The notes under the pieces: generated by a model
Seen by the model: only the letters and a program-made list of their open reading frames with translations
Told to the model about the DNA's origin: nothing
Databases searched by the model: none
IMG/VR virus record: IMGVR_UViG_3300042350_003801
Length of the DNA: 64,000 nt
Strand: one strand, 5' to 3'
Source of the DNA: a virus
Lineage: Duplodnaviria; Caudoviricetes
In this document: piece after piece, positions 289 through 5,295 of the stretch
Layout: every line of letters begins with the position of its first letter
Numbering within the stretch: position 1 is the stretch's first letter
Position numbers and translations under genes: made by a program

Positions 289-355
289 TATTTATTATTA
301 AGACTTTCATCACAAAACAGGCAAAACTATGTGAAAGAATTTGGCTAAAAGCCAA

Positions 356-428
356 CGACCAATAGGAGATTTGAACTCCTGTAACCTACTAGACAGGTAG
401 GTGTCCTAGACCACTAGACGAATTGGCC
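356..428 (-). tRNA. trnD: tRNA-Asp(GUC)
   Basis: Cloverleaf GGCCAAT...ATTGGTC-G, anticodon arm CCTAC-CTGTCTA-GTAGG, T loop TTCAAAT; CCA not encoded. Confidence 0.95.
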
Positions 429-430
429 AT

Positions 431-479: not shown

Positions 480-499
480 GTGTCAACTATTTAGGTTGG

Positions 500-654
500 C
501 AGCGATGTGCTATTACGCCAAAAGAAACTGCATTTTTCCTCGCCACATCACTTACATATGCCACCTCTAAGGCCCGACATTACTAAGCATTTCGCAGTCT
601 TGGTGCATTTTCTACTCTTTAAAGGATGGCTGCTTCTAAGCCTACCTTTCGCTG
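500..654 (-). ncRNA. 23S rRNA GTPase-associated-centre (L11-binding, H42-H44) mimic RNA with 95-nt insertion
   Basis: GGCUUAGAAGCAGCCAUCCUUUAAAGAGU and GCGUAAUAGC match the recalled 23S 1062-1100 consensus; closing helix CAGCGA/UCGCUG; promoter upstream (TG-TATGAT overlapping GATAAATA, about 683-700). Confidence 0.8.
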
Positions 655-878
655 TTAATGAAAAGAAGTTTTGGGTATTTCCTTTCATTGCCTATTTATC
701 ATACACTAAAACTGGGGTTGCGGGAGAAGCGTGTGCCAGTTTGGGAGGTGTCTTAAATGTGGCTCCAATGTTTTTGAAACCTTGGTTACCTTAGGATATT
801 TAAGCGATTTTGTCAAGGGGTAGTGGACGGTTGGGGGAGTGTCTACTTTTTATTTTGATATTTTTTGATGGGACGTAT

Positions 879-1301
879 TCACTCTGGTATATTTAAATAA
901 TCTTCAGCCATATGTATTTTTACTTTTTGATTACTTTTCGGTTTGGATAATCTCAGTCCAAGCCATTTTTCACACTTGTTGGGGTTAACATAATAGCATT
1001 TATCCGTATCTGGACAATAAATGCACATTAAATCTAATTCATTTTTATCGTAATCTTTATGATGTGAGCCATTTCTGTCGGCCCAAGATGTTCCAAAACG
1101 TACATTAATTACGTTATTATTAGCCGCTCTATATTTAACTTGAACTCTTTTAAAAATGCCGTCTTTATACGCGACTAAATCAAAAGATTCGTGCTCTGTA
1201 TGCGGGGTAAGAATTAAATAACCCTTTTCATACAAATCAAGTTGGGCTTTTAACACACCAAGGTCGCCTTTATTTTTAGTATGGTGATACCTCATACTCA
1301 T
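879..1301 (-). CDS. free-standing PD-(D/E)XK homing endonuclease, I-Ssp6803I-like (PDDEXK_5)
   Basis: TKNKGDLGVLKAQLDL..GY, FDLVAYKDG..RVQVKY motifs; AAGGAG RBS. Confidence 0.8.
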   Translation of the reverse strand: MSMRYHHTKNKGDLGVLKAQLDLYEKGYLILTPHTEHESFDLVAYKDGIFKRVQVKYRAANNNVINVRFGTSWADRNGSHHKDYDKNELDLMCIYCPDTDKCYYVNPNKCEKWLGLRLSKPKSNQKVKIHMAEDYLNIPE

Positions 1302-1420: not shown

Positions 1421-1705
1421 CGAGAACGGCGTGACTCGAACACGCGACTTACTGCTTAGCTTACCACTACGGATTTCCCCGCCATTTCTGTTTGTGGTCT
1501 GGACCATCTCTTCATCTTATCTTACGACTTAGATGCTTCCCGTATGGCCTCTACACGTTCAGGATTTCTCCCGCTTCGCTCGGGATTGCCATAGTCTTAC
1601 GACTTTAGGGTTCCCCGAATTTGAGAAGTTACATTTATGAAGTTTCCCTCGTAAAGCTCCTATTTTCGAAGGCAGTTGTTCTAAATCCAACTGAACTACG
1701 TTCCC
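1421..1705 (-). tRNA. trnR: tRNA-Arg(UCU), intron-containing (exons 1669-1705 and 1421-1459)
   Basis: Joined exons give GGGAACG-TA-GTTC..GAAC-A-ACTGC-CTTCTAA-GCAGT-AAGTC-GCGTG-TTCGAGT-CACGC-CGTTCTC-G. Confidence 0.9.
1460..1668 (-). mobile_element. group I self-splicing intron, 209 nt, no ORF
   Basis: 5' splice after U, terminal G; P AAAUUCGGGGAA, Q GGCAAUCCCGAGC, R GUAGAGGCCAUACGG, S AAGAGAUGGUCC; P7 GGCCAU/AUGGUC; P1 CUU|C..GGAG with U-G pair; P10 UAG/CUA. Confidence 0.9.
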
Positions 1706-4836: not shown

Positions 4837-5295
4837 ATGTGGCTGTATAATAATCAAGTTCTTGAAACTGTTCCAGAAGGAATGGAGGGGTTTGTATATC
4901 TTATTGAGAACTTAACAAACAATAAGAAATACATCGGTAAAAAGCACTTCTGGGAAAGGAGAAAGGACCGTAAGACGGGTAGAAGAAAGACAAAAGAGAG
5001 CAGTTGGCAATCTTATATGGGGAGTTGCGATGAATTGATTGCCGATTATAAAGAACTAGGAAGGGTAAACTTCAGGAAAACTATTCTTTATCTTTGCCCG
5101 CATAAGAAATCAATGTCTTATTTTGAAACATTAGAGCAGTTCAAAAGAGATGTTATTATGCGCGAAGATTATTACAATACTAATGTTGAAGGCAAGTTTT
5201 TCACTTCAGAGAAAGACAACATTTACAGTAAGGTTTTAATATCTGAAACGGTTCAAGACCAATCTTCAAACATAAATCCACTTGCAGTTGAATAG
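4837..5295 (+). CDS. GIY-YIG nuclease family protein
   Basis: GFVYLIENLTNNKKYIGKK motif; CATAAATA late promoter upstream. Confidence 0.8.
   Translation: MWLYNNQVLETVPEGMEGFVYLIENLTNNKKYIGKKHFWERRKDRKTGRRKTKESSWQSYMGSCDELIADYKELGRVNFRKTILYLCPHKKSMSYFETLEQFKRDVIMREDYYNTNVEGKFFTSEKDNIYSKVLISETVQDQSSNINPLAVE

Follow-up and report, generated by a model that had tools for sequence, protein, structure and literature searches.

The stretch of DNA analysed here, referred to throughout as the window, comprises the 64,000 nucleotides (nt) of IMG/VR virus record IMGVR_UViG_3300042350_003801, a phage of the Caudoviricetes from lake water. Near its start the minus strand carries, in order, an intron-split transfer RNA (tRNA) gene for Arg(UCU), a PD-(D/E)XK endonuclease gene, a 225-nt spacer, a 155-nt element, a tRNA-Pro remnant and a tRNA-Asp gene. 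The element encodes an RNA whose fold is under selection and copies helices 43 and 44 (H43/H44) of 23S ribosomal RNA (rRNA); it is neither a chance match nor a scrap of rRNA. In the ribosome these helices form the GTPase-associated centre, the 58-nt domain (E. coli positions 1051-1108) recognized by ribosomal protein uL11 and by thiostrepton. The parts of the element are listed below in the order in which the RNA would be read, with 23S positions in brackets.

500..654, minus strand: the element in full, 155 nt, with 23S 1050-1109 copied in two halves around a 95-nt insert (from the mapping and from covariance model R1, see below)
649..654, minus strand: closing helix, 5' strand CAGCGA (1050-1055), pairing with 505..500
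623..647, minus strand: H43 copy (A1057-U1081) with the 1067 loop, A1067 being 637 (from the cmscan alignment to large-subunit rRNA)
614..622, minus strand: junction UUAAAGAGU (U1082-U1090), with a 1082-1086 pair that covaries in the family
519..613, minus strand: inserted domain, 95 nt, between U1090 and G1091, at the same junction across the family
604..613, minus strand: insert-closing helix, 5' strand AGAAAAUGCA, with covariation in the family
523..532, minus strand: insert-closing helix, 3' strand UGCAGUUUCU, pairing with 613..604
519..522, minus strand: linker UUUG at the 3' end of the insert, with no rRNA counterpart, its UUU conserved in the family
506..518, minus strand: H44 copy GCGUAAUAGC (G1091-C1100; A1095 being 514) followed by A1101, C1102 and A1103 (from family conservation)
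500..505, minus strand: closing helix, 3' strand UCGCUG (1104-1109), pairing with 654..649

Read off the sequence, minus-strand positions 654..614 (CAGCGAAAGGUAGGCUUAGAAGCAGCCAUCCUUUAAAGAGU) correspond to 23S positions 1050-1090 and 518..500 (GCGUAAUAGCACAUCGCUG) to 1091-1109, with C1050 at 654, A1067 at 637, U1090 at 614, G1091 at 518, A1095 at 514 and G1109 at 500. The original prediction, made from the letters of the window, had placed 60 minus-strand nt on 23S 1050-1109, and this assignment proved correct to the base. The A1067 loop, the junction and the A1095 loop, which it described as kept, have the same sequence as in 23S rRNA; the closing helix CAGCGA/UCGCUG is formed by 654..649 and 505..500, and the 95-nt insertion with a closing helix of its own lies exactly at 519-613, between 1090 and 1091, the prediction having counted the UUUG linker in with it.

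Joined together, the two halves are identical at 44 of 60 positions to the corresponding part (1050-1109) of a true, E. coli-like 23S copy, locus L076. Of the 16 differences, 13 sit in seven base pairs, all seven of which are standard pairs in the window: going from L076 to the window, AC becomes CG at 1050-1109, GU becomes AU at 1051-1108, CG becomes GC at 1052-1107, AU becomes GC at 1054-1105, GC becomes AU at 1055-1104, UA becomes GC at 1058-1080 and AU becomes UA at 1090-1101. The three compensatory pairs singled out in the original prediction (1058-1080, 1055-1104 and 1090-1101) are thus all standard in the window and all changed relative to L076. Every one of the 17 tested 23S pairs is kept, the closing helix differs from that of L076 on both strands, and the minimum-energy fold of the single sequence recovers the same helices. 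By cmscan, 647..601 aligns to model positions 1098-1144 of LSU_rRNA_bacteria (RF02541; E 2e-5), and the score of 23.9 bits against a gathering cut-off of 50, with no other rRNA match in the 64 kilobases (kb), falls short of a full-length rRNA gene. Nor is the domain a contiguous 58 nt running into helix 42 (H42), being interrupted by the 95-nt insert. The element therefore shares the helices, both loops and the junction with the GTPase-associated centre and differs from it in lying outside any rRNA gene, in being split at 1090/1091, in having a closing helix of free sequence in place of H42, in an additional UUUR linker and in carrying A instead of U at 1101.

The same split architecture is found in a large phage family. 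Searches with the element by blastn returned an unannotated 5' half in the Pseudomonas phages pf16, UNO-G1W1, Astolliot and Milchi, in Xanthomonas phage XacN1, Cronobacter phage GAP32, Pectobacterium phage CBB, Aeromonas phage 4_4572, the Vibrio jumbo phage 2.275.O and Paenibacillus phage Pd_22F. The entire plan could be read directly in five cultured phages (pf16, UNO-G1W1, XacN1, Astolliot and GAP32), where a covarying closing helix is followed by an H43 copy whose last bases are AAAGAGU, or AAAGAAU in the case of XacN1, by an insert that varies, by UUUG, then GCGUAAYAGC or a one-base variant of it, and finally the other strand of the closing helix. In UNO-G1W1 (L002 1359-1466, on the opposite strand) and Milchi, the element is overlapped by GenBank 'hypothetical protein' genes that are probably miscalls. 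A similar candidate in the window, a 95-amino-acid plus-strand frame at 507-794, is the sole frame across the element, has no family match and was rejected as a protein-coding reading; L014, an IMG/VR relative (~91% identical, with a nearly identical element), lacks ~110 nt inside the region of this frame.

Scans of IMG/VR gave 26 loci with a 26-mer of the 5' half, 83 with a looser 5' pattern and >119 with an 18-mer of the 3' half that does not occur in true 23S rRNA. Among the 83 loci, 82 are split copies and L076 is the sole contiguous true 23S; two are cut off by the end of the contig, and those with both halves carry inserts of 45-338 nt at the same junction. Species-representative prokaryote assemblies also contain the 3' signature, at 44 loci that lie mostly on metagenome-assembled contigs, with a few in isolates; 30 of the 44 have a full-length match to the covariance model. 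Among the bins whose contigs hold split copies are Saccharibacteria, Parcubacteria, Thermoplasmatales and numerous further metagenome-assembled genomes (L207, L224, L209 and others). The carriers number in the hundreds and are unrelated, large phages of both Gram-negative and Gram-positive hosts, with genomes of 86 to >500 kb and as a rule one copy per genome. Seven loci (L092, L104, L110, L122, L140, L153 and L157) have an additional hairpin in H43, placed directly after A1077, besides the insert at 1090/1091.

Run on an alignment of 25 members, RNAalifold predicted H43, H44 and both closing helices, that of the element and that of the insert, with changes on both sides in 14 of 23 pairs; the covariance model R1 was built from this alignment. 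The window matches R1 at 660..494 with 128.7 bits over the full model length, a score that is partly by construction since the window is among the seed sequences; this is the single copy in the 64 kb, and family members outside the seed score 50-150 bits. Every family feature can be read in the window: the closing helix, the H43 copy, the insert helix, the UUUR linker and the H44 copy followed by ACAC or ACAU. Among 70 matches in an alignment that is fitted to R1 and whose sequences are related to one another, a fitting that has to be held against the result, 94.1% of cells are paired, compared with 70.9% after shuffling and 31-50% in slid controls; the covariation score is 0.511, compared with 0.142 and <=0.13, respectively, and 15 of 23 pairs are changed on both sides. 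Both-side changes across the family affect all nine pairs of the closing helix and all four modelled pairs of the insert-closing helix, and the 1058-1080 pair takes all four Watson-Crick forms (GC, UA, AU and CG).

Conservation was scored on the half not used as bait, that is, on the 5' half in the set fished with the 3' pattern (~75 sequences) and on the 3' half in the set fished with the 5' pattern; the bait pattern leaves the other half unbiased, so conservation there can be judged fairly. In the 5' half, U1060, G1071 and A1084 are invariant, C1072, A1085 and G1087 to U1090 have one or two exceptions each, and the junction pair 1082-1086 covaries (U-A in ~32 sequences, C-G in ~28 and A-U in ~15). 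In the 3' half, G1091, A1098 and C1100 are invariant, C1092 and G1099 have one or two exceptions each and G1093 and U1094 one each, G1091 to U1094 being 98-100% conserved, A1095 97% and A1101 94%, while position 1097 is U or C. The UUU of the linker is 94-98% conserved and its fourth base is G or A. In the family, the nucleotides that form the compact tertiary core of the authentic domain are fixed, and A1067 is relaxed. Covariation in the closing helix, at 1058-1080 and 1082-1086, and in the insert-closing helix identifies the element as a selected fold, and the original prediction that covariation argued for this over an rRNA scrap is borne out by the pair changes across the family.

The surroundings of the element combine tRNA genes with mobile DNA, and the features in question are given here.

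788..816, minus strand: promoter-like TTGACA-17 nt-TAAGGT upstream of the element, read by eye and conserved with L014
431..479, minus strand: truncated tRNA-Pro(UGG) without its T arm, directly downstream of the element (from comparison with L014)
355..429, minus strand: tRNA-Asp(GUC), a called tRNA and the next gene downstream
1421-1705, minus strand: tRNA-Arg(UCU) split by a group I intron (Rfam match, RF00028, 66.2 bits)
879-1301, minus strand: PD-(D/E)XK endonuclease gene (profile match, PF11645, E 3.3e-36)
4837-5295, plus strand: SegE-like GIY-YIG endonuclease (profile match, PF19835, E 1.5e-33)

Across 185 distinct loci, ARAGORN called 927 tRNA genes on the strand of the element and none on the other. 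A tRNA lies within ~30 nt of the element in 66 of the 185 loci, and in L006, L007, L058 and L077 no more than 1 to 8 nt separate the element from a tRNA on either side; the arrays of L043 and L061 contain a transfer-messenger RNA (tmRNA) as well. A search for partner genes within 4 kb of the element revealed no recurrent protein family, the most frequent being present at 7 of 185 loci. A position in a tRNA cluster behind overlapping sigma70-type and late promoters had been predicted for the window. The cluster is real, consisting of tRNA-Asp, the split tRNA-Arg and the truncated tRNA-Pro. The promoters were not confirmed: the promoter scan lists no site upstream of the element, the TTGACA-17-TAAGGT site (816..788) included, and the supposed late promoter is a one-mismatch GATAAATA. 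The TTGACA-17-TAAGGT site lies in the 225-nt spacer, within a 64-nt block that is 96.9% identical to L014.

Compared with the intact gene of L014 (6105-6178), the tRNA-Pro(UGG) at 431-479 lacks 26 nt comprising the T arm and the variable loop; its acceptor stem is still closed, and the gene is not called by ARAGORN. The group I intron sits in the anticodon loop of tRNA-Arg(UCU), by eye at 1668..1460 and ending in G, and L014 has at the same place an intact, different tRNA-Arg(UCU). The PD-(D/E)XK endonuclease is free-standing, between the intron-bearing tRNA and the element, and the same place in L014 (5029-5465) holds an unrelated open frame that is HNH-like by eye. Since unrelated frames occupy the same place in the two genomes, the region between the split tRNA-Arg and the element appears to be a homing-endonuclease hot spot. 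The SegE-like GIY-YIG endonuclease (4837-5295) is the third mobile nuclease within 5 kb.

With homing endonucleases and a group I intron within 1.2 kb, and an insert at one fixed rRNA position, the element could in principle be functionless debris, either a captured piece of host 23S rRNA or the exon remnants of a mobile intron that forms the insert. This reading is contradicted by the covariation, as pairs have been maintained through both-side changes in hundreds of copies. The flanking helix sequence, moreover, is not H42, the 45-nt inserts are too small for a self-splicing intron, and no intron model matches the inserts; the 1058-1080 pair is unlike that of E. coli-like 23S rRNA, so the window does not hold a fresh capture of such rRNA either. 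We regard debris as a very remote prospect.

The inserted domain varies far more than the core, with lengths of 45 to 338 nt, always at the 1090/1091 junction. The insert of the window is homologous to those of L058 and L035, with which it has the motifs GCGAAAUGC and GUGAUGUG in common as well as a long hairpin with compensatory changes. A 35-nt module found in at least 39 of 182 members (CACC, a tetraloop hairpin and GGUAAGG) is missing from it. A covarying pairing of a loop with the 3' tail of the insert is supported in relatives of the window's class, and within the insert of the window itself this pairing scores no better than shuffles. A conserved copy of the sarcin-ricin loop was sought in the inserts and rejected, its core word being limited to 2 of 182 members, the window not among them; the motif of the pf16-type insert was likewise rejected as a conserved sarcin-ricin loop. 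A freshwater-sediment contig (runs X14 and X18) joins window position 525 to 611, skipping 85 nt, which suggests that the sample holds a relative whose insert is shorter or otherwise different; the join is present in both an RNA and a DNA library of the one sample and so is no evidence of expression.

The properties of the insert raise the idea that the rRNA-like module is a handle, which would recruit uL11 or fold stably so as to protect or present the insert, the latter being the real activity. The inserts are large, fall into classes and have their own conserved motifs, among them the CACC-hairpin-GGUAAGG module and the two motifs of the window's class, and the loop-to-3'-tail pairing covaries in relatives of that class. 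The rRNA-like core is nevertheless the only part common to all members; inserts are not homologous between classes, the smallest is 45 nt and the window is without the commonest module, which leaves the handle an improbable account of the family.

We instead favor a model where the element encodes a stable non-coding RNA that is made from the tRNA strand and probably excised by tRNA-processing enzymes (RNase P and the 3' tRNA-processing enzymes), excision being suggested by the close flanking of the element by tRNAs in the arrays. The 41 nt of its 5' part and the 19 nt of its 3' part would join into a copy of H43/H44, the uL11-binding GTPase-associated centre, shut by the helix of free sequence and with the extra 95-nt domain hanging from the 1090/1091 junction. 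The isolated 58-nt rRNA fragment binds L11 by itself, as established by the Draper laboratory and seen in crystal structures 1HC8 and 1MMS. As all core tertiary nucleotides are kept in the phage copies, the RNA most likely binds host uL11 off the ribosome, in the form of an RNA-uL11 particle, and would then act as a stalk-base decoy for uL11 or for other molecules that recognize the site. In a survey of 40 carrier genomes, of which 22 are >=90% complete, uL11 (PF00298) was found in none, and any uL11 partner must therefore be that of the host. That the RNA is a decoy capturing uL11 or another ligand of the GTPase-associated centre is a proposal from sequence that we judge evenly balanced between right and wrong, and no single purpose of such capture rises above unlikely.

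A number of observations weigh against the decoy model. In the 5' half, 78% of sequences have A and 16% have G at 1067, while G1068 is retained in 70% and A1070 in 79%; in the 3' half A1096 is retained in 79%. A1067 is the loop adenine best known for its contacts with translation factors and thiostrepton. These four positions are more variable in the family than what we take to be the case in rRNA, which indicates that the family is not under the full constraints of the real centre. The insert breaks H44 between pairs 1090-1101 and 1091-1100, and the conserved UUU of the linker permits an alternative pairing with 1088-1090. The single-sequence folding energy of the element is not unusual (z = -0.30). 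Two metatranscriptome runs cover 614-647 only, and the loose ends of their contigs are true bacterial 23S rRNA and not the phage RNA, so that these runs speak neither for nor against its expression.

One conceivable purpose of capture is a uL11 sponge, where the RNA would titrate uL11 so that ribosomes lacking it fail to activate RelA and guanosine tetraphosphate (ppGpp) stays low. uL11 is needed for the activation of RelA and is among the exchangeable ribosomal proteins. The invariance of the core nucleotides needed for the uL11-binding shape fits this view, as does the proximity of the RNA to translation-related genes (tRNAs, and tmRNA in L043 and L061). Genomic backing for a role in the stringent response is lacking, however: among the 40 carrier genomes RelA_SpoT occurs in none and MazG scores above the cut-off in five, and in the relative L014 mazG sits 21 kb from the element. 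The connection to mazG and the stringent response drawn in the original prediction is thus not supported across the family. Loss of uL11 would, in addition, slow the translation that the phage itself needs, and we consider the sponge rather improbable.

Alternatively, the RNA could soak up attackers of H43/H44, be they modifying or cutting toxins, defence effectors or thiopeptide antibiotics. The Tre23 toxin ADP-ribosylates helix 44 at positions 1095-1098 (PMC8661411), precisely this site, where A1095 and A1098 are conserved in 97% and 100% of the phage copies. A preprint describes phage tRNA arrays, the setting of the element, as counter-measures to tRNA-targeting immunity (bioRxiv 10.1101/2025.02.04.636281). 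Phage tRNAs that serve as counter-defence spare parts in that account are, like the element, copies of host translation RNAs in the same arrays; a tRNA can replace its host counterpart, whereas a 155-nt domain cannot replace part of a ribosome and could hence act only as a binder or decoy. Such a decoy would face competition from tens of thousands of ribosomes; 22% of members depart from A at 1067, the base on which thiostrepton binding depends; and there is no conserved partner gene nearby. We also know of no anti-phage system aimed at the GTPase-associated centre. Protection of the site by a decoy is, on balance, unlikely.

Several classes of known RNA resemble the element in part. The leaders of ribosomal-protein messenger RNAs (mRNAs), such as the rplJ leader bound by L10(L12)4 (Rfam L10_leader), likewise imitate an rRNA protein-binding site. 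These leaders are cis-regulatory, stand upstream of ribosomal-protein genes in bacterial mRNAs and resemble rRNA loosely, whereas the element reproduces rRNA almost exactly, belongs to a phage and has tRNAs on its flanks and no ribosomal-protein gene nearby; neither L10_leader nor any other ribosomal-protein leader in Rfam matches it, even at E up to 10. With tmRNA, GOLLD, ROOL and the T4 species 1 and 2 RNAs the element shares a location in phage tRNA regions and probable release by tRNA enzymes. None of these is, to our knowledge, a copy of an rRNA domain, and Rfam gave no match to GOLLD, ROOL or other described phage non-coding RNAs in the window or in 14 other member loci.

These comparisons were made with Rfam 15, searched with the whole window at gathering score, with positions 430-900 at E up to 10 and with the 14 other loci at E up to 0.01. 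No family reaches its gathering score on the element, and only sub-threshold large-subunit rRNA, tRNAs and the group I intron were found. The original prediction had named a match to a characterized Rfam family as the outcome that would remove its novelty; none matches, so Rfam 15 does not contain the RNA. Known cases of mimicry concern tRNA, promoter DNA and, in mRNA leaders, rRNA sites. A full-text literature search returned no description of a phage RNA with a split GTPase-associated centre. In a catalogue of >ten thousand candidate viral RNAs, no rRNA predictions overlap the candidates and 23S is not mentioned (PMC10690425), and the present family could be among its unnamed entries. As far as we found in the literature searched, there is no earlier report of a virus gene that reproduces a ribosomal functional centre in the form of a separate RNA.

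The family offers a natural series of variants of the uL11 domain for structural work, with insertions at 1090/1091 and after A1077 and with changes at A1067, and the culturable carriers pf16 (on Pseudomonas putida), UNO-G1W1, GAP32 and XacN1 make the proposals directly testable. From the sequences at hand we tentatively suggest, at somewhat less than an even chance, that large phages infecting many different hosts produce a stand-alone imitation of the stalk base that captures uL11 or site-directed molecules and in this way reprograms or protects translation. If this is true, the RNA would be the first mimic of a functional rRNA centre encoded by a virus and would represent a new class of RNAs for counter-defence or takeover, and the size and host diversity of the family would point to a widespread, previously unrecognized interaction between phages and the translation apparatus of their hosts.
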